Virus record (IMG/VR): IMGVR_UViG_3300027156_000002
DNA length: 64,000 nucleotides
Reading direction: 5' to 3' (one strand)
DNA from: a virus
Lineage: Duplodnaviria; Heunggongvirae; Uroviricota; Caudoviricetes
This document shows, in pieces, positions 21,687 through 45,410 of the stretch (the first letter of the stretch is position 1; the number at the start of each line of letters is the position of its first letter). A model generated the notes under the pieces. It ran no database searches. It was not told the origin of the DNA and worked only from the letters and a program-made list of their open reading frames with translations. Position numbers and translations under genes: made by a program.

Positions 21687-21859
21687 TAATCTGATGAATC
21701 TCTGCTTCAGTCTGCATCATTGTGTTGCGTAACTGCGTAAGAAAATCCATCTTTTCTTTGTGCGCTGCTCTCAGTGTTTCAAGTTCGCTTTTAATATTCT
21801 CTAACATACTAACCCATTCTAAAAGGAGGGGAGGAATCTCCCCTCAACCAATTTATTTA

Positions 21860-22129
21860 TTAGGCATCAGCACCGATAGTTGTATCATCAGTGTTGTCAT
21901 CACCAGTGATTGATGACATAGCAACTAGAACTTCAGTCTTGTTGCGTGTTACACCTTGTGCATCAGTGTATGTATTAGTTGTTACCCAGCCTGCATGAGC
22001 AACACCTTTAGCCTTGTTTGCTGCGACTGCTGCTTCTGCTGCAGAGATACCCTCAACAGCTGCTTTACCAGCAGTGTTTAGATATTGTGGCTTGCTGCCA
22101 GCTGCGTCTGTTTTTCCCCATAGTGCCAT
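21860..22129 (-). CDS. small Ala-rich protein
   Basis: 89 aa. GGAG SD upstream. Confidence 0.4.
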   Translation of the reverse strand: MALWGKTDAAGSKPQYLNTAGKAAVEGISAAEAAVAANKAKGVAHAGWVTTNTYTDAQGVTRNKTEVLVAMSSITGDDNTDDTTIGADA

Positions 22130-22139
22130 TTTATTCTCC

Positions 22140-24569
22140 TTATTTGAAATTAGGCAAGTGTACTGGATAGCCTGTCATTTCGACACCACTACCTTTTCTC
22201 TTAGCAATAGTTCCCTTCTGACGTGCGCCAGATGTAGAACCTGCTGGACGACCACGACCACGTTTCTCTGCAGCTGGTTTAGCTGGCTTGTCTTCATCGT
22301 CGTAACCTTTTTTGTCTGCTTCGGCTTCACCCTTATAATACTCAGTACCATAACCACGACCACTCACTTTACGTACTGGTAAGTCAGCCATTTTAACCTC
22401 ATCAAGAGATTCTACAAACTCTTTATATGTTTTCATGTTAGTTATTACCTCTCCGTTATCGTCAAATTGTTCCACTTCTTCTTTATGACTCTTCATACCC
22501 TTATTCTTCATATACCATGCAAGAGCAAAAGGATTATCAATTTCTTTATGCTTCTTCATTGCTTTAACAGTACCCTCAAATCCTGGAGGTGCTTTCTCGT
22601 CAACTTGTTCGACTTCTTCAGTTCTAGTTCTGCGACCTGCGAAATGATGAATACCTCTGTTCTTCAATTCAGAACGAGATGCTTCATATTCATATCGGTT
22701 TTTCACTTCACTAGGTCTTGTCTGACCAAGGGTTTTAACTTTTTTATCGAGAGTTGATGTTGCTTGTTTTTTGGCAATCTTATTGGTTGCCGTGTACAAC
22801 CCCGCATCTCTTTTATCACTAGTATCGCCAGACTTTAAATTCTTTCTAACATATGACTTTAAAGTTTTCTGATCTAATTCATCGATCTGTTCAACTTCTT
22901 CGCAGGACACCTTATTAGTTGGATGACCATTGATTGGTTTCTTAGTTGCTTTGTATGCTTTATTCTCAGGTGTTCCTTTGATATACTTCTTATCTGGAAC
23001 TGGAGCAACTGGAGCTTGTTCATCAACAACGTCTTCTTTGATTTTACTCTTTGCAGCAATAGCTTGTTTAGCAAGTTCACGTGCACGACTCATTGGTGAT
23101 TGAGTAGTGCCATCTGAGTTTTTAACAGGTTTAGTCTTTGTATATGGACCATCAAATGGAACACTATTCTTAGAAGAACCACCACCAATCTCGTCACCTT
23201 TACGACGATAAGCAGATGCTGGCTTTTGGTAGTAACCTTCTTCCATTTCAACTTCTTCTTTGTAGATAGTTCCAATATGTTTTGCTTTAATCTTTTGTAG
23301 AGAGTTGCGACCACTAGCGTTCATAGTGTGGTTAACATCAAAGCCACCACTATGAGCATAAATCTCAATACCATCAAGATTGTCACGATGGGTTTTAACT
23401 TTTTCTTTAGCATACTTCACAGCATCTTCTTTAGTTTTGAATGGTGCTGCTTCCACCACTTGTTCAACTGACTCATCAACATAAACTGCACGAGTTCTTT
23501 CTCCAGGATGATACGCTTTAGTGCGTTTACCAGTAATACTCTTTCCGTGATCGTCAGCTTCTTTAGAAGTTTTGAAACCTTTTTTATGCGCAGTCATATT
23601 ACCATAAACATCCATTGAAGATGAATGATATGTACCGTGAACTGTATTCTTTTTGACCTTAGCATGATTCCAAGTTTGACTAGCTTCTTCTATTTCAACT
23701 TCTTCGTTGGTTTCTTTCTTACCTGTCAAGAAGTTCTTAAAGTTTTTCAAATCTGATTTGATAGATGGTTTCTTACCCATATCTTTTAAATAACTCTTAT
23801 CGGCAATGTCAGTGTTCTTTGCTGGAACTGATTCATCAAAGTGTTTGTAATCAACAGTAGTTTTCTTACTGCCTGATGTTCTGTGAGAAACAAAATGAAC
23901 TTTGTCATCTTCACGTGTTACATGAACTTGATTACCAGTTTCATCTTTATACATAGCCTTCGAATGTTCACCACTTGGTCGTAAACCCTTAACAATCTTT
24001 TGGTGTTCTGGATGTAGAGGATAAGAAATATCTTTGCCGTGATGAACAGTCATCATCTTACCCCAAGAATAATCTTTCTTGCTTACTGTGGCTTCTTCTA
24101 ACTCAACTTCTTCTTTTAATTTCGCTGAGATTTTATGAACTTTATATCCTTTGTCAGAGAAATGTTTTCTTGCAGCACGCTCTGCATGCTTTGGAGTTGC
24201 TGCCAATATAGATAGTGCTTTCTTTATAACTTCACGCTTCTCACCATCAGCAGGAGTTCCAGTATTATCAGAAACATGAGCAACTACAGTATGACGTCTA
24301 GAGTAATCATCTTCTTCGTCAATAGTTTCTTCAGAAACTAAAATATACTTGTTATTTGATGGGTTCAACTTAGGTTTTTGTCCAGGTGCTGCAGCAGCTT
24401 TCGCATCTTGATAAGTTGCAAACACTCTAGCTTCGATAATATCGTCAGCTACTTCTGTTTCTTCAGGAACACAGTTAGGAACTTTTCTTCCATTCTTATC
24501 CTTTAAACCAACTGCTTTATAGCCTTTCCAGCAAGCACTGGCTAAATCTGCAAATTTCTTTTTTGCCAT
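22140..24569 (-). CDS. large basic Lys-rich protein with six EEVE(x)EE repeats and C-terminal AT-hook (GRGRPAG)
   Basis: 809 aa. The repeats NEEVEIEEA, KEEVEMEEG, CEEVEQIDE, TEEVEQVDE, KEEVEQFDD and KEEVELEEA are read directly. RGRP is an AT-hook core. Confidence 0.55.
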   Translation of the reverse strand: MAKKKFADLASACWKGYKAVGLKDKNGRKVPNCVPEETEVADDIIEARVFATYQDAKAAAAPGQKPKLNPSNNKYILVSEETIDEEDDYSRRHTVVAHVSDNTGTPADGEKREVIKKALSILAATPKHAERAARKHFSDKGYKVHKISAKLKEEVELEEATVSKKDYSWGKMMTVHHGKDISYPLHPEHQKIVKGLRPSGEHSKAMYKDETGNQVHVTREDDKVHFVSHRTSGSKKTTVDYKHFDESVPAKNTDIADKSYLKDMGKKPSIKSDLKNFKNFLTGKKETNEEVEIEEASQTWNHAKVKKNTVHGTYHSSSMDVYGNMTAHKKGFKTSKEADDHGKSITGKRTKAYHPGERTRAVYVDESVEQVVEAAPFKTKEDAVKYAKEKVKTHRDNLDGIEIYAHSGGFDVNHTMNASGRNSLQKIKAKHIGTIYKEEVEMEEGYYQKPASAYRRKGDEIGGGSSKNSVPFDGPYTKTKPVKNSDGTTQSPMSRARELAKQAIAAKSKIKEDVVDEQAPVAPVPDKKYIKGTPENKAYKATKKPINGHPTNKVSCEEVEQIDELDQKTLKSYVRKNLKSGDTSDKRDAGLYTATNKIAKKQATSTLDKKVKTLGQTRPSEVKNRYEYEASRSELKNRGIHHFAGRRTRTEEVEQVDEKAPPGFEGTVKAMKKHKEIDNPFALAWYMKNKGMKSHKEEVEQFDDNGEVITNMKTYKEFVESLDEVKMADLPVRKVSGRGYGTEYYKGEAEADKKGYDDEDKPAKPAAEKRGRGRPAGSTSGARQKGTIAKRKGSGVEMTGYPVHLPNFK

Positions 24570-25020: not shown

Positions 25021-25518
25021 TTAACAATTCCATTTTCTTAATGCCAATGCTTTACGAGTTGGCTCGCCATTTGGCTTCTTCATTGGTCCTTCTACGCCAG
25101 ACATTCTGGCACAGAAAGACTTGCGACGATTGGCAGCTTTGCTACCAGCTTTTAATTTTGATGGTGGTGTTGTTACAGGTGCTTTAAGATTGCCACCCTC
25201 TGTTCTGTTATAATGATCTCGACCCTTTTGTGTCAAGCCACCAGTTGAAGATTTAAATCCTTTTGCATCAACAGCTGCTTCTTTAACAGTTAAAGATTTT
25301 TCATGGTGTTCATCTGCCTTTTCAGCATGCTTGTCTGCTGATGCCGAACGACCCTTCGACTCATGCCACTCGGACATAGCATCATGATGATCCGCCATGT
25401 GTGCATGAAATGACTTCATATCACCTTTAGATTCAGCGTCATTGGCTTTTGATAAATGCTCTTCTGCCTCATCATGTTTGGCATTATCTTCTGTAAGGTA
25501 ATCTTTAAAACGCAACAT
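25021..25518 (-). CDS. His-rich acidic internal-head-protein candidate with capsid-targeting-sequence-like N-terminus (MLRFKDYLTE)
   Basis: Start re-assigned to ATG 25516-25518, overlapping the upstream stop by 11 nt. The N-terminus matches the paralog family and the T4 capsid-targeting sequence MKTYQEFIAE, and ends in a L-T-E gp21-type cleavage site. His-rich (HAHMADHHDAMSEWHE, KHAEKADEHHEK). Confidence 0.5.
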   Translation of the reverse strand: MLRFKDYLTEDNAKHDEAEEHLSKANDAESKGDMKSFHAHMADHHDAMSEWHESKGRSASADKHAEKADEHHEKSLTVKEAAVDAKGFKSSTGGLTQKGRDHYNRTEGGNLKAPVTTPPSKLKAGSKAANRRKSFCARMSGVEGPMKKPNGEPTRKALALRKWNC

Positions 25519-27385
25519 TTCCAGATCCTTTAGTATATTTTGTATGTGATAATCTTGCTTTCTCAACAGCACGAATACGTGGAACAAGTTTCATTGCTAC
25601 ACGACCGATAACTTGTTTGCGTCTTTGAATAACTCTTTCTACACGCTCTTTCTCTCCAACTGAAAGTTTGTTATAGTCACGACCACGGAGTAGACGTTTC
25701 TTCATTAACTTAATTGCAAGACGACGTGCACGTTTGTTTGTAGTCTTAGTGGTGGCACGAGTTCTTAATGCGATGGATGCTTTACGTTCACGCTTAGCCT
25801 TAGATTTTGCAAAACGAACTCTTGCACGCATACGTTCTGTTCTTGAAAGAACTTCCAGAATTGCTTGCTCTTGCATTGTGCAAGCACATTCTTCATCGTC
25901 ATATTCTTCGCCAGTATCTGGATCGATAATACCAAACTCATCATCTTCATACTCATCGATGAATTCATCATCTGGTGTAGTATTAATAATGTGATCGATT
26001 TCTTCATCAGTAAGATCTAATTCTTTTTCTAACACATCTCTAGTGTGTTCACATCCTTCTTCGCCATGCTTTACGTTGTGTACTGGACAAATACCAGTAT
26101 CTTCCCATTCTTCATCATGTGGTTCATCGCCAGCATGATTAACTTTGCTCACATCAACTGGAGCTACTTCACCCAATTGTTGTTTAATTTTTTGTTTGCG
26201 TAAAGTTTCAGATGCTCCTGGTTCAACTAAACTATGTCCAGGTTTGCAGTGATTCTCTTTTACATCTTTCTTCTGTTCTTTTTCTTTTTTCTCACGTTCC
26301 TGTCTTTCTTGTTTCGCCATGCGAGACATTCTCTTGATGAAAGAAGGTTTATTATAATATGGAGTTGCTTCATCCAAAGAAGTTTCTTCTTGAGTAAGTT
26401 TCTGTGGAATTAAATTTGTGTCATATTGAATACCAACTTGGTTAGCCAGTTGTAACATCTTATTAACAATGTTCAATGCTTCTGGATTCAAAGTCTTGGA
26501 TTTGATTCTGCGTAGTGCAGTATTAACAAGCAACTCAGCGTTTGCAGTTGCCTCAACTTTATCCACACCAAGCATAGTTGCGATTACTCGAGCAACTTTA
26601 ATCTTATCGTTGGTTTTTAAAGTCTTATCTGTTAAGTCTTCGTTCATTTCTTTTTCTTCCGTTGGTATTACGTCTTGTATCCATTTAGAAACTAATTTGC
26701 CACTAGCTTCTTTAAGTAGTAAATGGTTTGAGCCACGTTTAACTACTGCTAATTTTTCTCCACTACATTCAACGATATCTCCGACATTAAAAATTTCACC
26801 ACGGAAATATTGTTCACGTACAGTATCTTTGACCAAATTAAGCTGCTCTTTAATTGGTTCTAAACCCATCGTAATACGGACATCGTTCATCAAACGACGA
26901 CCATCTAACTCACGAACAGAACTTGGCAACTTTTTCTTAAACTCTTCAAAAATTCCTTTAGTAGCAAAAGATTTCATCTTTGAAGAATTTACATCTGGGT
27001 CTTTATCTAAAGTAGAAATAATCTGAATGGAACTTGATTCTTTAACAATTTTTTTCAAGCTGGCTGATTGTTCGCTGCCGACAACCAATACAACATGTTT
27101 ATACTTCTGCGACAAATCTTTAATCGTTTCCGATAAAGATGTGATACTTTTAAAAGAAGTATTTGGGAACATTAAATTTAGATAATGTTCTTTCTTATCT
27201 TCTTGGATAATACTGTTCTTAGATGGGGATGTATAGATTACGTGGTCAGAATTTTTTTGTTCTGCCAGTTTTTTGACTGTCTTGACTAGTAGTTCGTGAC
27301 CGATTGTAGGAGGGTTAAACTCGCTAACTGCACAAACAATAGTACTGGACGGTAGTTCTTTGATTAGTTGTCTGTAATCTTTCAT
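25505..27385 (-). CDS. capsid-targeting-sequence-bearing protein with N-terminal HxGH nucleotidyltransferase-like domain and charged C-terminal region
   Basis: 626 aa. N-terminus MKDYRQLIKE followed by LPS. VCAVSEFNPPTIGHELL is a (H/T)xGH Rossmann nucleotidyltransferase motif. The C-terminus is Arg/Lys-rich. Confidence 0.55.
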   Translation of the reverse strand: MKDYRQLIKELPSSTIVCAVSEFNPPTIGHELLVKTVKKLAEQKNSDHVIYTSPSKNSIIQEDKKEHYLNLMFPNTSFKSITSLSETIKDLSQKYKHVVLVVGSEQSASLKKIVKESSSIQIISTLDKDPDVNSSKMKSFATKGIFEEFKKKLPSSVRELDGRRLMNDVRITMGLEPIKEQLNLVKDTVREQYFRGEIFNVGDIVECSGEKLAVVKRGSNHLLLKEASGKLVSKWIQDVIPTEEKEMNEDLTDKTLKTNDKIKVARVIATMLGVDKVEATANAELLVNTALRRIKSKTLNPEALNIVNKMLQLANQVGIQYDTNLIPQKLTQEETSLDEATPYYNKPSFIKRMSRMAKQERQEREKKEKEQKKDVKENHCKPGHSLVEPGASETLRKQKIKQQLGEVAPVDVSKVNHAGDEPHDEEWEDTGICPVHNVKHGEEGCEHTRDVLEKELDLTDEEIDHIINTTPDDEFIDEYEDDEFGIIDPDTGEEYDDEECACTMQEQAILEVLSRTERMRARVRFAKSKAKRERKASIALRTRATTKTTNKRARRLAIKLMKKRLLRGRDYNKLSVGEKERVERVIQRRKQVIGRVAMKLVPRIRAVEKARLSHTKYTKGSGNVAF

Positions 27386-27428
27386 TTAATCCATCTATAA
27401 AGTAATTTCTATTCATTTATTTAGGCAA

Positions 27429-27659
27429 TTATGCCACGCTAATTAACGCTTTTGCTGCTGCAACGATCCAACGACAGGCTACCTCGTCTGTGGCTAACTC
27501 CTGTTGGGCACGAATTTCAGCGATTTCATTGACCAAATACTCATATTCTTCTTTGGATAGCTGTCCCTGTTCATAATTTTCACGAATAACCAATAACTCG
27601 TTCGCCAATGCTGCTGCTGGACCACCCATTCCTGCTGCTTCTCTTAATTGTTCTAGCAT
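27429..27659 (-). CDS. hypothetical small protein
   Basis: 76 aa. Confidence 0.35.
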   Translation of the reverse strand: MLEQLREAAGMGGPAAALANELLVIRENYEQGQLSKEEYEYLVNEIAEIRAQQELATDEVACRWIVAAAKALISVA

Positions 27660-27856
27660 CTTGGACCCCTTAAAAATTCAACAATACCTTTGGCAGTTTT
27701 CATATGTCGTGCTTTATATGCACGATATTCATTTACCTCATCCATAATTGGATTCTTAATTTCTTCTAATCCTATAGATTCATATCCTGGATGATAAGGT
27801 GCTTCTGCTACTAATCTATCTTCAGTTGTAAATGTAGTCATTATCTTCCTTTCCAA
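27653..27856 (-). CDS. hypothetical small protein
   Basis: 67 aa. Confidence 0.35.
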   Translation of the reverse strand: MERKIMTTFTTEDRLVAEAPYHPGYESIGLEEIKNPIMDEVNEYRAYKARHMKTAKGIVEFLRGPRC

Positions 27857-28188
27857 GCATCTACTATTACATCGATTCTAACTTTATTTGTTTTAACAAC
27901 AGATTCGCAGAATACTTTGTTCTTGGATTCTCCTGCTTTCTTGATAGCTTCTTGCAATTTTCCAATAGCTTCTGCTTGTGGGTCAGATCTTAAAACAGCA
28001 TAAACTTTTAATCTCTCGATATACTCGTCTGCGTTTTGGAACATTAACTGATTACCACATTCTAATTTATCAACTGCTATTTTGGTATCAACTAAACGAC
28101 CAAACATTTCTGGGTCGTGTGGTCTTGGTAGGATAACAGAACATGCAGATAAAGAAACTACGGCAAGAATCAGTATTAACTTTTTCAT
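27841..28188 (-). CDS. lipoprotein
   Basis: 115 aa. Signal peptide plus lipobox LSAC. Confidence 0.45.
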   Translation of the reverse strand: MKKLILILAVVSLSACSVILPRPHDPEMFGRLVDTKIAVDKLECGNQLMFQNADEYIERLKVYAVLRSDPQAEAIGKLQEAIKKAGESKNKVFCESVVKTNKVRIDVIVDAWKGR

Positions 28189-29231
28189 ACAGCTTTACCT
28201 GCACTCTTTAATGAACTTAATGGATCAGATTGAGAGTCGAACTTATGGGCTTGAGAAGCAAACTTCTTACCATTGTGATAGAAGTGAACAGAGCCACCAC
28301 TGGATTTAACTGTAATATTCTTATGGTCTTTAAGGATATGTTCGTGGTCTTCGCTTGGCTTACTTGTATGGTGTTGAACACCCTTAGCAGTTTGATATGT
28401 TGTATGCTTAATAAAACTGTGCCCCTTTTCTTCTGCAGGAGTCTTATGTGCATGTAGAACTTCACGAATATGTTTAACTACATGGTCGTGGTTATTGTTG
28501 TCTAAGTGGTGCTGCAACTCAGCAGCATGATCGTGAGCAACTTTATGTAAAAGTTCTTTGTTGCGTTTCTTAATATCATCATGCAACTTAGGATCTGCTT
28601 TTGCAATTTCTTTACGCTGGTCTTTATTCTTACCTTTTAATTTAGGATGAGCAGCAAGTATTGCGTCTTGATGATCTTTATAATGCTGTCTGGCTTTTGA
28701 ACCACCAGATTCCATACCAAGACTTGAAGACGGAATGTTTTTACTGGACTTATCGCTGACTTTTAAACTTACGCCATGATGATGTTCTTTACCTGTCTTT
28801 GGATGCTTGGTAGTTACATAAACGTCAGAAGAATCTTCTTTCTGTGTTGCTTTGTGACCAGTTACCTTTTCTGTATCTCCAGGTTTTGAAGTCCAATGCA
28901 CTGCTGAAATCTTATGCCCTTTGTGAGTAGAATCGATATGTGCCTTAATATGATTGGCAGCACTCTCTGCATTTTTAGCGATCTTATCATAATCTTTAGG
29001 GTGAATTTGTTTCTTTAATCTCTCGTGTGCTTGCTCAGGTGTTTCATCGTTTTCATTCTTGTGTTTCTCTAGATGCTTACCACCATTTAAATGTTTGCCG
29101 ACTAATAGTTCGTGCAACACACCTTTAGTGTTATTGGAAACACCACCCTCTTTGGAAGCATCATCAGCTGCTTCGATAAGCAATTCTTCGTAGTATTGTT
29201 CTTCTGCTAAGAACGATTTAAAATTTTTCAT
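28185..29231 (-). CDS. His/Lys-rich capsid-targeting-sequence-bearing internal-head-protein candidate
   Basis: 348 aa. N-terminus MKNFKSFLAE followed by EQ. Extreme His and Lys content (HHHG, HDHAAELQHHLDNNNHDH). Confidence 0.5.
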   Translation of the reverse strand: MKNFKSFLAEEQYYEELLIEAADDASKEGGVSNNTKGVLHELLVGKHLNGGKHLEKHKNENDETPEQAHERLKKQIHPKDYDKIAKNAESAANHIKAHIDSTHKGHKISAVHWTSKPGDTEKVTGHKATQKEDSSDVYVTTKHPKTGKEHHHGVSLKVSDKSSKNIPSSSLGMESGGSKARQHYKDHQDAILAAHPKLKGKNKDQRKEIAKADPKLHDDIKKRNKELLHKVAHDHAAELQHHLDNNNHDHVVKHIREVLHAHKTPAEEKGHSFIKHTTYQTAKGVQHHTSKPSEDHEHILKDHKNITVKSSGGSVHFYHNGKKFASQAHKFDSQSDPLSSLKSAGKAV

Positions 29232-29845
29232 TACTTTACACCCATATGTTTACGTAAGTCGTGATACAATTCTGTTTTATGTTCTGGTTTCATCTGTGAC
29301 GATAGATGAGATTCAAACTTTTTCTGTTCACCAGCTGCAGCGTGACCACGAAGTTTAGTTCCAGAAATACCTTCAGTTCCTTTTGCATTTGGATCACGTT
29401 TACCTGCATTGTGGAACTTTATACTCTTGAAATTGTAATGTCCATGTGGACCTTCTTTTCCATTATACTTTTTAATCAATTCATGCATTGGTTTACGATC
29501 ATCGCCACCAGCAAAGTGTAAATGAGTAACACCTTTTTTGTGCAACTCAGCAGCATGATGAAGAACAGTAGGATGTTCTTTATCAGCTACCTTAACATTG
29601 GTTCCAGGAAATGCTCTCTCTGCATGTTTCTTTTTAACATCAGGTGGTAATGGATTAGATCCGTCTTTAGTTGCATGCGAACCTGATAATACCAATGTAT
29701 GTTCTGCATTATGTTTCTTGGCAGTATCATGCATATGGGTTACGAGTTTCTCATGACCAGCAGTTGGAGGATTCATTCGACCAAAAGCAAGAACATGATG
29801 AACGTCTTTTTCTGATTCTACAATATAAGATTTAAATGTCTTCAT
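29231..29845 (-). CDS. capsid-targeting-sequence-bearing HxGH nucleotidyltransferase-like protein (paralog of 25505..27385 N-domain)
   Basis: 204 aa. N-terminus MKTFKSYIVE followed by SE. AFGRMNPPTAGHEKLV motif. His-rich. Confidence 0.5.
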   Translation of the reverse strand: MKTFKSYIVESEKDVHHVLAFGRMNPPTAGHEKLVTHMHDTAKKHNAEHTLVLSGSHATKDGSNPLPPDVKKKHAERAFPGTNVKVADKEHPTVLHHAAELHKKGVTHLHFAGGDDRKPMHELIKKYNGKEGPHGHYNFKSIKFHNAGKRDPNAKGTEGISGTKLRGHAAAGEQKKFESHLSSQMKPEHKTELYHDLRKHMGVK

Positions 29846-31035
29846 TTTCTTGGCTTTAATAAGTTGGCTTTACTGAATTCTGCACGATTAACAATTTTAG
29901 ATGGTTCTTGTTTACCTTTGTGCGTATAATTTATAACATATCCCTCAGGATCTGTTTTCTTATCTCCAATATGATGCTCAAGACCGCCAGTATGCTGGTT
30001 TAAATTCTTAACTAAAAGGTTTTTACCTTGCTGTAAATGCTGATGCATTTTAAATAGATTCTCATAATGCTCTTTATTTTTCTCAACATGCGCAGCGTGA
30101 CCAGAACCAAGATTACGCTGAGCAGTTTGTCCCTTCTCAGACTTTAGTTTAGACGCTTTCTTTTCATAAACATCCTGAATATGTTTAATGAATCCTTTTG
30201 CGTTTGGTTTTGTATCTTTGCGAACTGTTTGATTGATGTAAGTTCCCAAATGTCCAGCATCACCTTTGTGTTCTGGATGGATCGCACCATACATCTTATC
30301 GCCGTGTTTATCATGAATATCTTTTGCAGCATTCATGTGGCTTTGGAATCTTTTCTGATCTGCTTGAGTATATTTAACTTTGCTAGTATCATGCTCGGCA
30401 CCAGCAAGATGCACATCTTTGTGTTGACCAAAACTTTTCATATCAGGATGAGGAGTTGCTTTCATCGAAGCAAAATCTTTACCCTCATATTTTTGGTGAA
30501 CAACTAACCCAAATTTAGATTGGGCTGTTTTCTTGGCTTCATCGCCATGCGCAGTATACTTAATTGTATTTGGTGTATAAGAAGCAGTTCCCTTCTTCTC
30601 ATCATATTTAACATCACCCTCAGAGTGCATAACGTCACCCTGATATACACCTTGCTTAGGTGCAACCTTTGGTAGATGTTTTAGAGCATGCTTTAATTTT
30701 TCTGCGAGACCTGGAGCATGACCATGGTTCTTGTCAATGTCCTTAGCAGTATAGTTGATTTTTGGGTTTTTATTGAACGCTGACTTGGAAGCAACAAAGA
30801 ATTTTCCAGTTTCTGGATGCTTTCCAAAAACCAATGATGGCGATCCGTCATATTTCATGGTCAGATCGCTGGATTGTTTCCCAGCTTTAATGTGTTCATG
30901 TCCATGGTTTAGTGCACCAAGAGCATGTTCGAACCCTGAAGAACCATGGAATAGAGGGCGATCCTCTACATGATGGATGTGCTTCAGTTTCTCTTCTTCG
31001 GTTTCTTCTTTAAGGAATGTTTGGAACGACTTCAT
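29842..31035 (-). CDS. capsid-targeting-sequence-bearing protein with KxDG nucleotidyltransferase (ligase/capping-type) motif
   Basis: Start re-assigned to the 2nd ATG (MKSFQTFLKE followed by ETEE), which aligns residue-by-residue with T4 MKTYQEFIAE. TMKYDGSPSLVF resembles ligase motif I. Confidence 0.5.
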   Translation of the reverse strand: MKSFQTFLKEETEEEKLKHIHHVEDRPLFHGSSGFEHALGALNHGHEHIKAGKQSSDLTMKYDGSPSLVFGKHPETGKFFVASKSAFNKNPKINYTAKDIDKNHGHAPGLAEKLKHALKHLPKVAPKQGVYQGDVMHSEGDVKYDEKKGTASYTPNTIKYTAHGDEAKKTAQSKFGLVVHQKYEGKDFASMKATPHPDMKSFGQHKDVHLAGAEHDTSKVKYTQADQKRFQSHMNAAKDIHDKHGDKMYGAIHPEHKGDAGHLGTYINQTVRKDTKPNAKGFIKHIQDVYEKKASKLKSEKGQTAQRNLGSGHAAHVEKNKEHYENLFKMHQHLQQGKNLLVKNLNQHTGGLEHHIGDKKTDPEGYVINYTHKGKQEPSKIVNRAEFSKANLLKPRK

Positions 31036-31049
31036 TTTACCCATCTATA

Positions 31050-31120
31050 CAGTTATTATACCCTACTTTTACAATAAAGTAAAGCATTATTTTAGTAACC
31101 CTACGTTCTGAAGGGTTATT
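31050..31120 (-). promoter_or_regulatory. PeSL-like cassette 3: promoter (-35 rc 31078-31083 TTTACT, -10 rc 31055-31060 TATAAT) plus stem-loop 31098-31118
   Basis: Read directly. Sits immediately upstream of the capsid-targeting-sequence gene cluster. Confidence 0.65.
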
Positions 31121-31152
31121 TTAATCCATTGAAAACAATGACTTACAGAGGT

Positions 31153-31160
31153 ATTTATAA
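31153..31160 (-). promoter_or_regulatory. T4-type late promoter core TATAAATA (minus strand)
   Basis: Plus-strand TATTTATA at 31153-31160 is the only exact occurrence found in the window. It lies upstream of PeSL-3 and the internal-protein block. Confidence 0.4.
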
Positions 31161-31164
31161 AAGT

Positions 31165-31983
31165 CTATGAAGCGAATGCTTTAAGTAGAGACTGATTGTC
31201 AGTTAAGCTGTAAGCTGTTCTATTAATAGTGACGTTATTTTGGGATGTAATGGGTGCTAGGTTATAGAGAGATTTTCTTAGGTTTGAAAATTCTAAAGTC
31301 ATAACGAACTGGTAATCGCCACCACCCTTTGGCTGGCATCTAGTTCTGATTCTAGCTGATGTGCAGTTTGAGAAATCTTCGATCTTCTTGGTTAGCTTGG
31401 CATTCAATTTTAACGGATCGAATTTATTCATTAAATAGAACCCATGAGTACCTACATTGATGTAGTAGGTTTTCTTCTTATTGTAGTAGTCACAGATAGC
31501 CTTAGCTGGGACTGTTATGTGGACCTCGTTCTCACCCTTATAACTTTGTATATCAATTTCATACGCTTTGCGTTTGTCTTTAATACCACCAGTAAGTATT
31601 TTTCTACCAGCTTGGTCATTCTGTAGAATAGGAACTTTACTTCTCCACTTCTCACCAGCAGTACCCGATACATTCATTTCTTGGAGAAGGTTGTATTGAG
31701 TTGCGATATCTCGCATCATGATTTTCTCAGGATCGCCTTTAAGGTCTTCAGCGAATGCCCACTTACCGTTGTAGTATTTTAATACTAGAGATCCTGCTGC
31801 AGTTGGGGATATCTTTAACTCACATCCTGTTGATGTTGATATACTTTTAGTGACGATAGAAAGATCTGGTTTATCGTGCGATGCGCCAGCTGGATCACCT
31901 ACAGTGATTTTGTATTCTTTCAATACGTTATGTGCGTTTCTCTCGTAATCGAAACCTTTTTGTGCCATGGGAACCCCGTACAA
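31165..31983 (-). CDS. hypothetical protein (possible PD-(D/E)xK-like fold)
   Basis: 272 aa. Weak D...EIDIQSYK motif only. Confidence 0.4.
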   Translation of the reverse strand: MYGVPMAQKGFDYERNAHNVLKEYKITVGDPAGASHDKPDLSIVTKSISTSTGCELKISPTAAGSLVLKYYNGKWAFAEDLKGDPEKIMMRDIATQYNLLQEMNVSGTAGEKWRSKVPILQNDQAGRKILTGGIKDKRKAYEIDIQSYKGENEVHITVPAKAICDYYNKKKTYYINVGTHGFYLMNKFDPLKLNAKLTKKIEDFSNCTSARIRTRCQPKGGGDYQFVMTLEFSNLRKSLYNLAPITSQNNVTINRTAYSLTDNQSLLKAFAS

Positions 31984-31994
31984 TAATTATTGTA

Positions 31995-32762
31995 CTATTT
32001 AGGTCTGCGCTGTCTACGAATAACTTTCTCGTATTTGCGATCCCACTTACCGATCTGGTCAATGATCTTTCTTGGAGATTCATTGTTTCGGAAGTCGTAG
32101 TCGAATGTCTTGAGGAAATAGTGGAGGGTTTTTGAATCGCGAGATTTCTTGCAGCGATTTAGTAGCGTATTAATATCTACGTTTGGTCTTAGTACTTTGA
32201 AGTCTAGGTATACACAATGAGCATATGCTTGTATCTCATCGAACTCAGAAAGGTACTTTCTTTCTGCGTCTTTTTTGGCTATACCAACTTTCTTATAAGG
32301 AACAACATAATTGCTCCATGTATCATCACGTCTATCATATTGCATGAAGTGAATTATCTCATGCATCAAAGTTTGCAATAAACGAAACTTAAACTTTTCC
32401 CAAACTTGGTCATTGAAATTAAATGTATCAAATTTGGTTGTATGTATTATTAAAAGTGACTGTCTATTTTCTGGATCATACTCACCACCAATACAAACAT
32501 ACTTCTCAGTCCAACTAGCCTTAGACTTCTCTTCTCTCCATACAACTTTAGTTCGCCACTTTTTAAGATAGTTGGCTAAACCTTTTGAATCGTTTCTATA
32601 CTTGTCTAGATCCTTGAGGACTTTTGCTGGAACAAGTTTAGCCCTAAATGGACGCTCATAAAAATTGAGCATGTCCATCCAGTCGGAGTTATAATTTTCC
32701 AGGAACTTCATATTCAGCCCTATTTGATAAAAGGAACTGGCTCCTGCATACCCCTTTCCCAA
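31995..32762 (-). CDS. HExxH zinc-metallopeptidase-like protein
   Basis: 255 aa. HEIIHFMQYD motif. Confidence 0.45.
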   Translation of the reverse strand: MGKGYAGASSFYQIGLNMKFLENYNSDWMDMLNFYERPFRAKLVPAKVLKDLDKYRNDSKGLANYLKKWRTKVVWREEKSKASWTEKYVCIGGEYDPENRQSLLIIHTTKFDTFNFNDQVWEKFKFRLLQTLMHEIIHFMQYDRRDDTWSNYVVPYKKVGIAKKDAERKYLSEFDEIQAYAHCVYLDFKVLRPNVDINTLLNRCKKSRDSKTLHYFLKTFDYDFRNNESPRKIIDQIGKWDRKYEKVIRRQRRPK

Positions 32763-33172
32763 AAATACAACTCAACAGTTTGGGGTAACAGTTTGCGCAT
32801 CCCTCTCAGTACTTTTTTGTTGTCTTCATAATGTCGTTGTATACCCAATTCAAGCACCCTTTCGGACTTAAATCGGACTACATTTTCAACAGTTCTGGTA
32901 TTATCTAGAAGATGGAAGGAAATTACTCTTCCACCATAATATTTATTCAGCCAGTCTTTTGTGATTGTATGTATTCTTGGCTCTCGTTTTCTTGCAGAAA
33001 TGGCGTAAAATTGGGTCTCAACTGGCTCTATAAGTTTCTCGGCATTCTCGTACCAATCGTACAAAAAGTCCTTCCTAGCCTTTCTTTGAACCCCATTCAT
33101 TTTACCCCACTTCATTTCGGATGGCGGTGGCTGAGCAGCCAGAACCCCATCGATGTCATAAGAAACTATCAT
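32720..33172 (-). CDS. HAD-superfamily 5'(3')-deoxyribonucleotidase-like protein
   Basis: 150 aa. N-terminal DIDGVL motif (DxDG[TV]) of HAD phosphatases. Confidence 0.5.
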   Translation of the reverse strand: MIVSYDIDGVLAAQPPPSEMKWGKMNGVQRKARKDFLYDWYENAEKLIEPVETQFYAISARKREPRIHTITKDWLNKYYGGRVISFHLLDNTRTVENVVRFKSERVLELGIQRHYEDNKKVLRGMRKLLPQTVELYFWERGMQEPVPFIK

Positions 33173-34176
33173 AGGATTAATGGATCAACCTTTCCAGTCT
33201 TTTCTACAACAGCTTTCTGCTTTTCCCAGATATTTCTACGGACTTCCTCTGGGAATGACGCAAACTTATCCAACTCCATTTTGGTATCTGTAGGGAAACA
33301 CCAATTCAAACCATTGTTACCTTTCGGTGCGCAGACAGGAATACCTGCATAAAGAGCATGATATGCACGACCAGTTCTCCAACCAGACTTCTTATGTTTA
33401 TCGTCATAGACAGCTAGACAGCCATAGAACTGTTGATAGAACTTTCTACGATCTCTTTGCTGTGGGTTTGGTAGAATCTCAAGTGCTTCAAAATCATCCC
33501 ATTCAGCTTCTTTACCTGCAACTTGAAGACAACGTGAAGAAGTAAACTCTTTGAAGTATTTGGTTCTGCCATTTGGTCTACCAATGTAAACCACCTTCTC
33601 AATATTACCTGGATGAAATTCAGCAAACTCCATACCAGATGCCATGGGTAAATCAACAGTTGTAGTTCCGATAGGACACTTCAGGATAGTTGCAACTTCA
33701 TTACACTCAGTCGCATTGGCTGCAATAGTCCAACGTGACCAATCTTCATCAGGTAACAACTCCCAAAGGAATGGAAGATCTGGATCGTCATTCAAAAAGA
33801 TGATGCGACCCTTATGTGCTTTAATCATCTCAACAGTTTTATCCCAGTACTTCTGATAGAACTGCAAATTAGTTCCACCAAACTCAAGCATGAGAACATC
33901 ACAATCTTGATATGTGTCAAATGTTTCAAACCCATCATCTTTGGTTGCATCAGTTGCTTCTGATAGTGGAATGATTCGATGACCAAAATCAAGCATGTTC
34001 TTGAACAGAGCAACACGTTTCTCTACCCATGCTCCACGAACACCATTCTCTTTGTTGGTCAAACCAATCTTACCAGAAACTCTGCGATAACCAATTTTAG
34101 TTCCAGTATTGCTAGAGTTCTTTGAATAGAACCACTCTAACAACCTTTCTTCACCTAGAAACTCATGTAGTGACAT
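33169..34176 (-). CDS. glycosyltransferase-like protein with recalled similarity to T4 DNA beta-glucosyltransferase C-terminal half
   Basis: 335 aa. The VVYIGRPNGRTKYFKEF...YGCLAVYDDKHKKSGWRTGRAYHALYAGIPV blocks resemble BGT DVIYGGSFRSGQRE...IGDKNY..TLRVWETMASD. This is recall-based and not computed. Confidence 0.4.
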   Translation of the reverse strand: MSLHEFLGEERLLEWFYSKNSSNTGTKIGYRRVSGKIGLTNKENGVRGAWVEKRVALFKNMLDFGHRIIPLSEATDATKDDGFETFDTYQDCDVLMLEFGGTNLQFYQKYWDKTVEMIKAHKGRIIFLNDDPDLPFLWELLPDEDWSRWTIAANATECNEVATILKCPIGTTTVDLPMASGMEFAEFHPGNIEKVVYIGRPNGRTKYFKEFTSSRCLQVAGKEAEWDDFEALEILPNPQQRDRRKFYQQFYGCLAVYDDKHKKSGWRTGRAYHALYAGIPVCAPKGNNGLNWCFPTDTKMELDKFASFPEEVRRNIWEKQKAVVEKTGKVDPLIL

Positions 34177-34184
34177 AATAAACC

Positions 34185-35486
34185 TTACGCAAAAAATTCA
34201 TCAAGTGATCCAGACTTCATTGATTCTGGATGATATTTAATTAGGATTTCATCTCCAAGTTTTTCACGACAATAGTCGTACCACTCGTCAGAAGTCCACA
34301 TACCTTCGGAAACACCATTCCAAAGTTTACGTTGCATCGGATGTTCAGGATTCTTGCGACGTTGTTCAACGAAGTCATAACGACAGTTCTCATATTCCCA
34401 AGAACCCAACTCAAGCATCTTCTCACGGAAGTAGCAAACCAAACTGATACGCTCAGAACCTTCTTCACAAACGATAGGAGTGTTGCCATGCATAACATCA
34501 TGGTTGTTAATCAATAGCAAGTCGCCTGGACGTGGATTAACAGCAACACGATACTCAGGTGCAATCAAATAACCACCACTGTAACGTCCATCATTTGACA
34601 AAGTTAGTAGATTTGAAAGACCACTATTTAAATCGCCAACGTCATAGTGAGCAGCAGTTCTGAATGTTTTATTCACAGTAACAGTTGTGAATGGAGTTCC
34701 AGGAACTAGGAAACGAGGATCAACTTGTCTCGCTGCTTTCATCTGTGCTTCATAACGCTGTGGTAGTAGATCCCTAAAACCATTTGACAATGTTTGTAGG
34801 AATGGGTAAGCAAGTGCAAACTTCTCAGGATTCTTGGCAGTGTAAGATGTTGCACGACCATAAGGAATGCGAGGATAACGATCGAACCAACCTGCGATGC
34901 CAGAATAAACTGAGTTAGCGTAAGTGGTTGCACAAATCAATTCATCAGCAACAAAGTTTGCTTCTTTAATTTGTTCTTGTCGTGGAAGTGTACGCACTTT
35001 CTCAACCCACTGATCGAAATTAAAATTGGTTGACTTAGTTCTTTCAATCGACCAAACATTATTGCGATTAGATGGAGTAGGTGGTTTACCCTTATAGCGT
35101 TTGATAATATCTTCTACAGGATCTCCTGCAAGACCAGAGTATGGGTCAAGGAAGTATTCAACCATCTCAGATTCATACTCAGTAACCCATTCACGATTAC
35201 CCAACTTCTCACCACGTGGACCTGCTGCTGCGCCACGATTCTGTGTTTCAGTTGCAGCTTCACGAAGACCTGCATACGCTTGGTCTTGTTGTTCTTTGGT
35301 GAAGAAGTTCTTACGGAACTTCAATACAATCCTGTCTTCATTGATAGGATCTTCACCATAAGGTGCTGGCATATAAACATCAGTATCTTCTTCGATAAGA
35401 TGGTCGTAATGATTCTCGTCAACGAATTGACCAATCAAATGTTTACAATCAATCTTTTTATCAGCGACAATAACTTTAACTGTCAT
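34185..35486 (-). CDS. Fe(II)/2-oxoglutarate dioxygenase (P4H/AlkB-type 2OG-FeII_Oxy C-terminal domain) with large N-terminal domain
   Basis: 433 aa. HYDVGD (HxD)...LTLSNDG..GGYL...PRPGDLLLINNHDVMHGNTP (distal His)...ERISLVCYF (RxS) read directly. Confidence 0.65.
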   Translation of the reverse strand: MTVKVIVADKKIDCKHLIGQFVDENHYDHLIEEDTDVYMPAPYGEDPINEDRIVLKFRKNFFTKEQQDQAYAGLREAATETQNRGAAAGPRGEKLGNREWVTEYESEMVEYFLDPYSGLAGDPVEDIIKRYKGKPPTPSNRNNVWSIERTKSTNFNFDQWVEKVRTLPRQEQIKEANFVADELICATTYANSVYSGIAGWFDRYPRIPYGRATSYTAKNPEKFALAYPFLQTLSNGFRDLLPQRYEAQMKAARQVDPRFLVPGTPFTTVTVNKTFRTAAHYDVGDLNSGLSNLLTLSNDGRYSGGYLIAPEYRVAVNPRPGDLLLINNHDVMHGNTPIVCEEGSERISLVCYFREKMLELGSWEYENCRYDFVEQRRKNPEHPMQRKLWNGVSEGMWTSDEWYDYCREKLGDEILIKYHPESMKSGSLDEFFA

Positions 35487-43922: not shown

Positions 43923-44118
43923 TTTTAACTCCTAATACTCTATGTATAATTTTATCCTGAATCATATGTGGGATTGTCATATATGGAAACACAAGAAAGA
44001 AAGGACAACCACTAGAACCCCAACCACCAGTTTTCAAAAACTTTCTATATGAGTCAAGATCTTGTTTACTCTTTGGGTTGAAAAATCTTTTCTGCCCTAG
44101 TTTACTTTCTAGTATCAT
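43903..44118 (-). CDS. hypothetical small protein
   Basis: 71 aa. Confidence 0.35.
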   Translation of the reverse strand: MILESKLGQKRFFNPKSKQDLDSYRKFLKTGGWGSSGCPFFLVFPYMTIPHMIQDKIIHRVLGVKNDKSSY

Positions 44119-45410
44119 TTAATCACCTTGCTGGTATCTGCAACAGTTTTATCATCACGAAGTTCAATAAACACTGGAAGGAACAAACTATCCTCACCTT
44201 GTTTATTCTTTATTCTCATATTATACTTGATAGCTACAATTTTGTCAACTAAATTTTCTTTCCAATAATTCTTGCGATGTTCCTCAGTAAAGCCAGAGCC
44301 AACATTAACTTTTACAACACCATCGGCAGATTCGCAAACAATCGCACCAAGCATTCCTGCAGCTTTACCCTTACCCTCTTCCACTGCAACAATCTTCAAG
44401 TCGCACTCGAGTTCGCCTTTGAATTTAATCTGAGTCTTGCTACGTTTATCTTCCCAGATACCTTTGCGACATTTCAGGATGATACCTTCTTGGCCATCAG
44501 CAAGCAATTTCTCGAACAACGTATTTGCTTCTTCGATAGCATCAACTTCCCAGCTATCAACAAGACCAACTTTCTTTGGCTGATATGTATCCAGCATTAC
44601 ACAAAGAGAATCAAATCGTTGTCCGTAAGGAACAAGACATTCACCTTTAGTAAACGCATCATACGGAATCAAATCCCATACTGTGGCATGAACCTTGCGT
44701 GCTTCATCAGTTTTGATAGTACCCTTGTTGGCTTTATTCAAAATACCATTACCAGTCTGACGATCTAGGATGATACCTTTATCTTTGACGAGCAACTCGC
44801 CATCAAACACGCAATCTTGTCCGTTAGCCATGACAATGAAATCTTCTTCGAGATTACCCAACAAGTCAATCTCTTTACCATTGCGTGAACGAAACTCACA
44901 CTTACCAGAACGAACGATAGCATTGAATCGCATACCATCCATTTTAGTTTGCACGAAAGCAGGGAATTTAATTTTATCAACCAGCTTCTGTTCGAATGGT
45001 GAACAGAGCATAACAGGATATTCAAAAATCAAATTCTTCCATACCTTGTTTGCTGTTGACACATCAACACCACACTTCAAGTCTTTAGCGATGATACGCT
45101 CAAGTACTTTAGCATCGTCTGCGTTTAGTGCTTCAAGATTCGCACGCAGATGGTCGATACCAGCATTACCAGTGACCAATCGTTTAGTCAAATCACCGAT
45201 TGAATCCATGGCAAACTTGAGAGAGATTCCATCACCAGTATTTGGTGTATACTCAGGAATCTTACGGATGTAAAACTGAGTGAACGGGTCGAGAGTCTTG
45301 CGAACAACCTCACGTAGCACTTCGTTATCGCTATGTGCGTTTAGTTGCTCGATCTTGAAGTTGCGTGAGTTATTACTCGCAAGACTCTCGAAAAACTTAT
45401 TCAGATTCAT
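44115..45410 (-). CDS. 30: ATP-dependent DNA ligase (T4 gp30-like)
   Basis: 431 aa. Motif I KMDGMR, DGELL and an OB domain. Confidence 0.85.
   Translation of the reverse strand: MNLNKFFESLASNNSRNFKIEQLNAHSDNEVLREVVRKTLDPFTQFYIRKIPEYTPNTGDGISLKFAMDSIGDLTKRLVTGNAGIDHLRANLEALNADDAKVLERIIAKDLKCGVDVSTANKVWKNLIFEYPVMLCSPFEQKLVDKIKFPAFVQTKMDGMRFNAIVRSGKCEFRSRNGKEIDLLGNLEEDFIVMANGQDCVFDGELLVKDKGIILDRQTGNGILNKANKGTIKTDEARKVHATVWDLIPYDAFTKGECLVPYGQRFDSLCVMLDTYQPKKVGLVDSWEVDAIEEANTLFEKLLADGQEGIILKCRKGIWEDKRSKTQIKFKGELECDLKIVAVEEGKGKAAGMLGAIVCESADGVVKVNVGSGFTEEHRKNYWKENLVDKIVAIKYNMRIKNKQGEDSLFLPVFIELRDDKTVADTSKVIK

Follow-up and report, generated by a model that had tools for sequence, protein, structure and literature searches.

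An internal-head-protein-like locus of a marine T4-like phage pairs a predicted ligase-fold protein with a putative adenylyltransferase

Which proteins does a marine T4-like phage place in its head, and what would they do in the next host? The question is raised by a stretch of viral DNA of 64,000 nucleotides (nt; hereafter the window, record IMGVR_UViG_3300027156_000002), in which a first-pass annotation had singled out three proteins that begin with a T4-like capsid targeting sequence (CTS) and carry nucleotidyltransferase motifs: a 397-amino-acid (aa) member of the family DUF6267 with KxDG, and two proteins of 204 and 626 aa with (H/T)xGH. The three open reading frames (ORFs) and their motifs were recovered at the positions given there, on the minus strand, and the motifs exceed what chance would give, with the caveat that the TxGH of the 626-aa protein lies in a domain that is otherwise decayed. 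With somewhat more confidence than doubt, we read the gene chain from 31035 to 21860 as an internal-head-protein locus of a marine T4-like (Kyanoviridae-type) myovirus, from which the DUF6267 protein and the 204-aa transferase would be delivered as a pair acting on 5'-phosphate ends.

The T4-type replication genes of the window (gp43 polymerase, gp41 helicase, gp46, NrdA and a gp30-like ATP-dependent DNA ligase, the last a separate gene at 44115-45410) identify it as the replication module of an uncultured marine T4-like myovirus. By protein its nearest cultured relatives are Kyanoviridae (Methylophilales phage Melnitz, Pelagibacter phage HTVC008M and cyanomyoviruses), and no DNA near-identical to the window was found in the phage collection searched. 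All genes of the window lie on the minus strand, and the chain from 31035 to 21860 consists of 11 tightly overlapping genes, five of whose products bear a CTS (Table 1).

The CTS pattern M-[KL]-x-[FY]-x-x-[FYL]-[IL]-x-E, scanned over all six frames, occurs at exactly 5 of 558 M-starts, each of them the start of a gene and located between 25518 and 31035 (that of the 165-aa DUF6321 protein was set by a relaxed form of the pattern); the chance of at least four strict matches among the 71 gene starts is ~3e-10. The likeness is one of peptide pattern and not of DNA, as only 14-21 of 30 nt are identical. In T4, whose CTS is MKTYQEFIAE (PMC8442874), mutations affect targeting at residues 4 and 7 and processing at residues 8 and 10, and the protease gp21 cleaves after L/I-x-E (PMC9026906); in each of the five window peptides, positions 4 and 7 hold an aromatic residue or Leu, position 8 holds Ile or Leu, and position 10 is Glu. 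Among DUF6267 homologues, M1, F4, L8 and E10 show conservation of 90% or more; among those of the 204-aa protein this holds for M1, F4 and E10. The first in-frame ATG of the DUF6267 ORF lies at 31044, but its homologues place the start of the gene at 31035. The CTS proteins are basic, with isoelectric points (pI) of 8.9-9.7 (window median 6.5), and among DUF6267 representatives the median pI is 9.3 with a CTS versus 7.2 without one. As a separate observation, histidine makes up 9-12% of the DUF6267, 204-aa and 348-aa CTS proteins, versus a window median of 1.8%.

Evidence from virions is available for relatives. In the available excerpts on cyanophage S-SZBM1, the "cytidylyltransferase" S-SZBM1_140 and its neighbor _139 are among the proteins detected in CsCl-purified virions (PMC9146016); S-SZBM1_140 begins MRFRQFIIE, shares 35% identity with the 204-aa protein and is encoded beside a DUF6267 gene. 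Available passages on S-CREM2 report a virion "cytidylyltransferase", ORF154, together with ORFs 155 and 156 (PMC10665884); what ORF154 has in common with S-SZBM1_140 is this annotation and the detection in virions. At the same locus of S-CRM01, CTS-like starts are found on g131, g130 and g129 as well as on the transferase g127; g130 (L007 6658-9123), a Ser/Thr kinase cited as virion-associated in the same passages (PMC10665884), starts MISFDQFLSE, and a Zeta-toxin/AAA_33 P-loop kinase of HTVC008M (L005 7709-8371) has the CTS-like start MIPFILKE. The differing enzymes that carry CTS-like starts among Kyanoviridae suggest a hypervariable cargo locus. A gp21-type protease is annotated in Kyanoviridae genomes; the window covers a part of the genome outside the head module. 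The first-pass annotation's view of the three N-termini as capsid-targeting peptides is thus borne out by their T4-like form and by the virion association of S-SZBM1_140, and we consider it likely that the tagged proteins of this phage, too, would be packaged in the head. The idea that DUF6267 carries a CTS only where gp30 is present was discarded, because DUF6267 of Melnitz starts in CTS-like fashion although that phage lacks gp30.

If packaged, is the DUF6267 protein an enzyme? It is a full-length member of its Pfam family (E 2e-96), for which a profile search yielded 2,466 clusters at 50% identity and a literature search no paper under that name. The K, Y, D and G of its KYDG (residues 61-64, nt 30844-30855) are all invariant among 40 homologues. 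Among 43 divergent long members (27-57% identity), the K and G of KxDG never vary and its D is kept in at least 90%; also invariant in this set are the glycine of QGD, a histidine, the glycine and valine of PEGFV and the lysine of K-x-V-x-R, and neighboring D, Q, D, E and R residues of these motifs are kept in at least 90% of it. In an AlphaFold model built on the 40 homologues (predicted local distance difference test, pLDDT, 89; predicted template modeling score, pTM, 0.85), residues 1-20, comprising the CTS and a linker, are disordered, and KYDG is placed where one strand ends, before a loop that leads into a second strand, the arrangement seen for motif I of ligases. The closest matches to the predicted fold are RNA and DNA ligases, with RNA ligases at the top, including T4 Rnl1 and Trl1. 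The candidate motifs YQGD, PNTIxY/VVVH, PEGFV and K-x-V-N-R follow the canonical order III, IIIa, IV, V, and, with a helical insert of ~120 residues (227-348) set aside, the arrangement and spacing, KYDG included, agree with those of motifs I, III, IIIa, IV and V. hhalign places PEGYV of DUF6267 on motif IV of both T4 Rnl2 (EGYVLK) and the gp30-like ligase of the window, at non-significant E-values of 0.2-0.4.

These features point to a new, very divergent family with a predicted ligase nucleotidyltransferase fold, in which catalysis would presumably depend on Lys61 (397-aa numbering). The protein had been annotated as ligase- or capping-like; the ligase part is supported by the predicted structure, and no capping enzyme is found among the top 60 fold matches. 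A DNA ligase of the gp30/LigD type was considered and rejected, there being no C-terminal oligonucleotide/oligosaccharide-binding (OB) domain (strands 355-384 of the model belong to the nucleotidyltransferase core, and no domain follows them) and no match to Pfam ligase families. A cellular context was rejected as well: 21 of 21 matches in the genome collection are metagenome-assembled genomes or phage-like contigs, and the lone "isolate" contig is a T4-like phage. In NZ_RMVE01000006.1 ('Nonlabens xiamenensis 1Q3', a 188-kb contig), the ~14 kb examined contain a T4-like replication module with gp43, UvsX, gp41, MazG, DUF6267, transferase, head protein and primase; the contig is probably a phage genome and not a bacterial chromosome.

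The rank of RNA ligases among the fold matches, with the tRNA-repairing T4 Rnl1 and Trl1 included, invites the view, already put forward in the first-pass annotation, that the locus encodes a tRNA or RNA repair kit against host anticodon nucleases, in which the injected ligase would reseal cleaved tRNAs with the assistance of the transferase. In HTVC008M the Zeta-toxin/AAA_33 kinase (Pfam 3e-13) is encoded between DUF6267 and the transferase, a combination of ligase and kinase that recalls Pnkp/Rnl logic. However, this kinase is lineage-specific and has no homologue in the window, whose cluster contains no kinase, phosphatase or 2H/cyclic-phosphodiesterase; an NMNAT-like partner occurs in no known RNA repair system; and the cyanophage versions without a CTS, apparently late genes, would be poorly timed against early RNA cleavage. 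We regard an RNA repair function as unlikely.

A second function to be weighed against the predicted fold is that of the "missing" nick-sealing DNA ligase of Kyanoviridae, serving replication or DNA about to be packaged, with packaging of the protein itself secondary. Cyanomyoviruses have no gp30 homologue, and the possibility of a distant, unrecognized one has been raised (PMC2984593); tblastn finds no gp30-like gene in Melnitz; and DUF6267 is a cyanomyovirus signature gene (S-PM2_138) that is always beside gp41, UvsX and gp43. On the other hand the window has gp30 in addition to DUF6267, half of the DUF6267 family is CTS-tagged, and the OB domain is absent, so that this function appears distinctly unlikely to us.

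The 204-aa protein contains FGRMNPPTAGH at residues 21-31 (nt 29753-29785), and GRMNPxTxGH, S-x-S...NPL and G-x-S-x-x-K-x-R are invariant across 32 homologues; the expectation that its (H/T)xGH motif, like the KxDG of DUF6267, would be conserved in orthologues is thereby confirmed. The features that define HIGH-motif nucleotidyltransferases (a Rossmann fold, (H/T)xGH and a second motif of the ISxTxxR type) are all present. PHROGs labels the protein "cytidyltransferase" (E 1e-48); its top structural matches are NMNATs, and in our reading its motifs resemble the signatures of archaeal NMNAT and of NadM/NadR. Searches of the PDB by sequence and profile returned nothing significant. By fold and motifs the protein is best described as a NadM/NadR-like adenylyltransferase of putative activity.

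This structural proximity to NMN/NaMN adenylyltransferases, and the motifs GRxxPxHxGH, S...NP(F/L) and ISGTxxR-like that we read as common to archaeal-type NMNAT and NadM/NadR, would also suit an injected enzyme that resynthesizes NAD+ (or another dinucleotide) against NAD-depleting abortive-infection systems, and NadM/NadR-NadV salvage by phages is a known counter-defense (PMC9503650). Such a function leaves the obligatory link to a ligase-fold protein unexplained, no NadV is encoded nearby, and the transferase scores below the family cut-offs; we judge it quite improbable.

The link between the two proteins is close. The start codon of the 204-aa gene overlaps the stop codon of DUF6267 (ATGA), and metagenomic homologues are single polypeptides in which KLVNRAEF is followed by a linker and FGRMNPPTAGH; in these fusions the transferase stands behind DUF6267 and has lost its own CTS. 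A transferase domain is found on 38 of the 150 top family representatives of DUF6267, and the cyanophage signature gene S-PM2_138 is a DUF6267-transferase fusion. Since many relatives encode them as a single fused chain, joint action of the two is very likely. One metagenomic fusion of 1145 aa (P0281) further contains a Pol-beta-type domain near its C-terminus (Pfam NTP_transf_2, E 7e-6).

The 626-aa protein had been taken, like the 204-aa protein, for a nucleotidyltransferase. The two are indeed homologous (626-aa protein: phrog_3041/395, E 8e-33), but only the 204-aa protein keeps the full motifs. In the 626-aa protein, an orthologue of the long transferases of Melnitz (650 aa) and HTVC008M (596 aa), VSEFNPPTIGH occupies residues 20-30 (nt 27296-27328); PPTIGH is kept and GR has become SE, and compared with canonical orthologues the SxxxxxxNPL segment (S..QDAKKNPL), GSDR and the whole ISxTxxR (GMSASKMR) loop are deleted or lost, which leaves it short of the full catalytic motif set of HIGH-motif nucleotidyltransferases. 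Sister lineages also lack GH. Judged by these losses the protein is probably inactive as a transferase, and we propose that it is a decayed ancestral copy retained for its other domains.

The long protein is without canonical motifs in 29 of 29 related loci that have a DUF6267-fused or -adjacent transferase, whereas in 14 of 16 loci where DUF6267 stands alone it keeps FGRFNPPTxGH...SxxxxKKNPL...GSDR...GMSASKMR. This pattern indicates that there is one active transferase per genome and that selection moved the active copy beside the ligase-like enzyme. It also bears on the view that these are non-enzymatic internal proteins, relic folds whose sole function is that of basic cargo, condensing DNA or acting as scaffold in the manner of T4 IPII and IPIII. 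The very basic, His-rich composition of the proteins and the retention of the 626-aa copy despite its lost catalytic motifs would fit such cargo; the rule of one active copy implies purifying selection on catalysis, and lineages with only ~27-57% overall identity have without exception preserved the catalytic residues of DUF6267 and those of a single transferase in each genome, which makes a purely structural role very improbable.

How would a delivered pair act on 5'-phosphate ends? The 10-residue N-terminal peptides would dock the proteins onto the prohead core, a gp21-type prohead protease would cut after Glu10, and the basic mature enzymes would stay with the packed DNA and then be ejected into the next host. 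Early in infection the ligase domain, possibly pre-charged as Lys-AMP, would adenylylate or seal 5'-phosphate nucleic-acid ends, and the transferase would make or recycle an adenylyl donor (an A5'pp5'N compound such as NAD+) or act on the same ends. The analysis shows the predicted folds, the motifs, the fusion, the pattern of decay and the CTS pattern; that the proteins of this phage are packaged and cleaved, and what they catalyze, on which substrate and when, we infer. A5'pp5'N linkages are built by both enzyme classes. The pair probably adenylylates or seals 5'-phosphate ends, with the transferase supplying the donor. The gene cluster of the window contains no end-healing kinase or phosphatase and no NadV.

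A bolder version, which we consider rather unlikely as a whole, is that DUF6267 and its NMNAT-like partner form a self-contained, capsid-delivered machine for end-sealing or 5'-adenylylation able to produce its own adenylyl donor: an A5'pp5'N cofactor, for instance NAD+, would come from the fused transferase, and the ligase would use it or arrive as Lys-AMP. If this were true, Kyanoviridae, otherwise without a DNA ligase, would gain a ligase active at genome entry; nicks in virion DNA damaged by sunlight or nucleases could be resealed, for example; and the adjoining Dps-like and PD-(D/E)xK-like genes could belong to the same genome-integrity kit.

With respect to timing, the T4-type late-promoter motif TATAAATA upstream of DUF6267 (Table 1) is the only copy in the window on either strand; the cyanomyovirus late promoter is NATAAATA (PMC2984593), and AATAAATA is found ~20 nt upstream of the DUF6267 gene in S-PM2 and S-CRM01. 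A conserved late promoter before the operon was nevertheless rejected, as the motif is present in 3 of 40 loci and most relatives have no gap separating the chain from p267; because the promoter position is so rarely kept, late timing of DUF6267 is suggestive only. Independently of position, ATAAATA is depleted in the window (5 found versus 20 expected, all on the coding strand), and in the 51 related loci it occurs 101 times on the coding strand versus 6 on the other; avoidance and strand bias are consistent with use as a late-promoter core. Intergenic DNA precedes only two of the CTS genes, DUF6267 (31036-31055) and the 626-aa gene (27386-27405), both on the minus strand, and a near-identical TATAGATGG(G/A)T(A/T)AA directly 5' of the ATG of both may be a common translation-initiation or promoter element.

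Several observations weigh against the reading of the locus as one that delivers an end-modifying enzyme pair. The ligase assignment of DUF6267 rests on a predicted structure: Foldseek against the PDB and PDB sequence and profile searches returned nothing significant, the hhalign comparisons of DUF6267 profiles with T4 Rnl2 and the gp30-like ligase stay short of significance, motif V has no second lysine, and the model has no OB or other known nucleic-acid-binding domain. For the 204-aa protein, all Pfam and NCBIfam scores are below the family cut-offs. As to delivery, DUF6267 of cyanophages (S-SZBM1_141, S-CRM01 g132 and S-PM2_138) begins at a conserved HLEHLED element, without a CTS, and S-SZBM1_141 is not among the virion proteins in the excerpts of the S-SZBM1 table available (PMC9146016). 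A late-promoter motif stands within 200 nt upstream in only 3 of the 40 related loci, and since cyanophage DUF6267 follows such a motif without having a CTS, the enzyme may act late, inside the producing cell.

Table 1. Features of the gene chain and its upstream flank, in order of decreasing position in the window
Feature	Position	Strand	Evidence or remark
267-aa upstream neighbor, phrog_26930	31165..31968	-	PD-(D/E)xK-like signature D35...E50-x-K52 (putative)
TATAAATA, T4-type late-promoter motif	31152..31159	-	117 nt upstream of the DUF6267 start codon
DUF6267 protein, 397 aa	29842..31035	-	CTS MKSFQTFLKE (nt 31006-31035), then predicted ligase-fold lysine nucleotidyltransferase
204-aa HIGH-motif protein	29231..29845	-	CTS MKTFKSYIVE, then NMNAT-like Rossmann domain
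348-aa basic His-rich protein	28185..29231	-	CTS MKNFKSFLAE (CTS pattern match)
115-aa lipoprotein-like ORF within the chain	27841..28188	-	N-terminus MKKLILILAVVSLSAC resembles signal peptide and lipobox
Two small overlapping ORFs, 67 and 76 aa	27429..27856	-	ORF list
626-aa protein	25505..27385	-	CTS MKDYRQLIKE, degenerate nucleotidyltransferase domain, small SH3-like domain (nt 26669-26797), basic C-terminus
165-aa protein	25021..25518	-	CTS-like start MLRFKDYLTE, C-terminal DUF6321 (Pfam, E 1.6e-25)
Dps/ferritin-like protein, 148 aa	24573..25019	-	No CTS; Pfam Ferritin E 8e-20; phrog_3636
809-aa basic protein	22140..24569	-	N-terminal CWKGYK...NCVP motif; phrog_9737
89-aa protein, final gene of the chain	21860..22129	-	blastp to S-SZBM1_136, E 2e-12
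Terminator-like hairpin and T-run ending the chain	21831..21845	-	Terminator scan

The chain was compared with 51 related viral loci (L029-L079). Gene order is kept among them: p255, p267, (348-aa type), DUF6267 with or without the transferase, lipoprotein and small ORF, and then long transferase, DUF6321, Dps-like, 809-aa type and 89-aa type. The 348-aa protein (pI 9.25, 11.5% His) has no family match in Pfam, PHROGs, NCBIfam or the PDB, and CTS-bearing homologues of 405-423 aa are encoded directly upstream of DUF6267 in ~25 related loci; the suggestion that it is a paralogue of the 267-aa PD-(D/E)xK-like protein was dropped, as phmmer and hhalign give it no support. The 115-aa lipoprotein-like ORF, for which family searches gave no match, is kept in related loci, mid-chain among genes for putatively packaged proteins, and the 76-aa ORF is kept as well. 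The Dps/ferritin-like gene is embedded among CTS-tagged genes, a position kept in ~40 related loci. The CWKGYK...NCVP motif is common to the 809-aa protein and S-SZBM1_139, and the 89-aa protein is a homologue of a cyanophage 'virion structural protein'.

Upstream of the chain, residues D35, E50 and K52 of the 267-aa protein are invariant in 30 homologues, and PDB sequence and profile searches with it gave nothing significant. Its gene precedes DUF6267 in many related phages, in some of which its stop codon overlaps the next CTS gene. Further upstream, directly downstream of the gp41 helicase gene, a Tet/JBP-family 2-oxoglutarate-Fe(II) dioxygenase (34185-35486, minus strand; Pfam Tet_JBP, E 3e-24) is followed (31995-34176) by a 335-aa protein, a 150-aa HAD-like protein starting MIVSYDIDGVLA and a 255-aa protein with an HEIIH motif; these four genes may constitute a DNA base-hypermodification module.

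The pairing is of wider interest in that DUF6267 and the transferase are signature genes in T4-like phages of marine cyanobacteria, SAR11 and methylotrophs, which rank among the ocean's most abundant viruses, and in that many lineages tag the pair with a T4-type CTS. Two hypothetical proteins become a concrete biochemical hypothesis, and the common annotation "cytidylyltransferase / auxiliary metabolic gene" is corrected. The T4 CTS system appears to be conserved far beyond T-even phages and to deliver enzymes besides small anti-restriction proteins, and the findings bear on the old question of why cyanomyoviruses seem to be ligase-less.

Comparison with known systems sets these proposals in context. 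As in IPI, IPII, IPIII and Alt of T4, the tag has 10 residues, hydrophobic at 4 and 7 with L/I-x-E at 8-10 (PMC9026906, PMC8442874), the mature proteins are basic like T4 internal proteins, and unrelated cargo genes that share only the tag are clustered. T4 internal proteins are delivered with the DNA (PMC9026906, PMC8442874), and delivery here would follow by analogy. Unlike the T4 proteins, the cargo of the window is homologous to none of them and shows predicted enzyme folds (ligase-like and adenylyltransferase-like, with a protein kinase in relatives), and its locus lies in the replication module next to gp41.

As in Rnl5 (Naegleria NgrRnl, 5cot), T4 Rnl2 (1s68), REL1, T4 Rnl1 and the ligase domain of Trl1, the KxDG lysine of DUF6267 is predicted to lie between two beta-strands, and candidate motifs III (QGD), IV (PEGFV) and V (K-x-V-x-R) follow the canonical order of ATP-dependent RNA ligases. 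Unlike these ligases, DUF6267 shows no significant sequence or profile similarity to them, has a helical bundle of ~120 residues before motif IV, has neither an OB domain nor the usual Rnl appendage domains, has a motif V without the second Lys, and has an extra invariant N-terminal element, H-x-x-H-x-E-D-x-P. The 204-aa protein shares GRxxPx(H/T)xGH, S..S......NP(L/F) and G-x-S-x-x-K-x-R with NadM/NadR and archaeal NMNAT (1f9a, 2qjt) and with PPAT; it differs from them in that it lacks a partner domain of the Nudix or kinase type and NadV is not encoded nearby, in carrying a CTS, in being fused or adjacent to a ligase-fold protein and in scoring below the Pfam and NCBIfam cut-offs. Its homologue S-SZBM1_140 has a CTS-like start and lies beside a DUF6267 gene in the same manner. 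In the passages available, the cyanophage papers label the virion "cytidylyltransferase" an auxiliary metabolic gene whose function is unclear or TagD-like, and these passages mention no targeting peptide, ligase-like partner or fusions (PMC9146016, PMC10665884).

What was already known, then, are CTS-targeted internal proteins, ligase-fold enzymes and NMNAT-like enzymes, with a virion "cytidylyltransferase" reported as an oddity. In the literature searched we found neither a ligase-fold assignment for DUF6267 nor a report of it fused to one active transferase; nor did we meet there the complementary loss of motifs in the second copy or a conserved T4-type CTS on DUF6267 and transferase across Kyanoviridae-like phages. 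A further parallel is with T4 Pnkp-Rnl1 and bacterial Pnkp/Hen1, which likewise couple an enzyme of ligase fold with another that handles nucleotides, and HTVC008M adds a P-loop kinase to the same cluster; unlike the Pnkp systems, the window encodes neither a phosphatase nor a kinase for end healing, the ligase-like protein has an NMNAT-like partner, and the pair is probably delivered by the capsid rather than expressed early.

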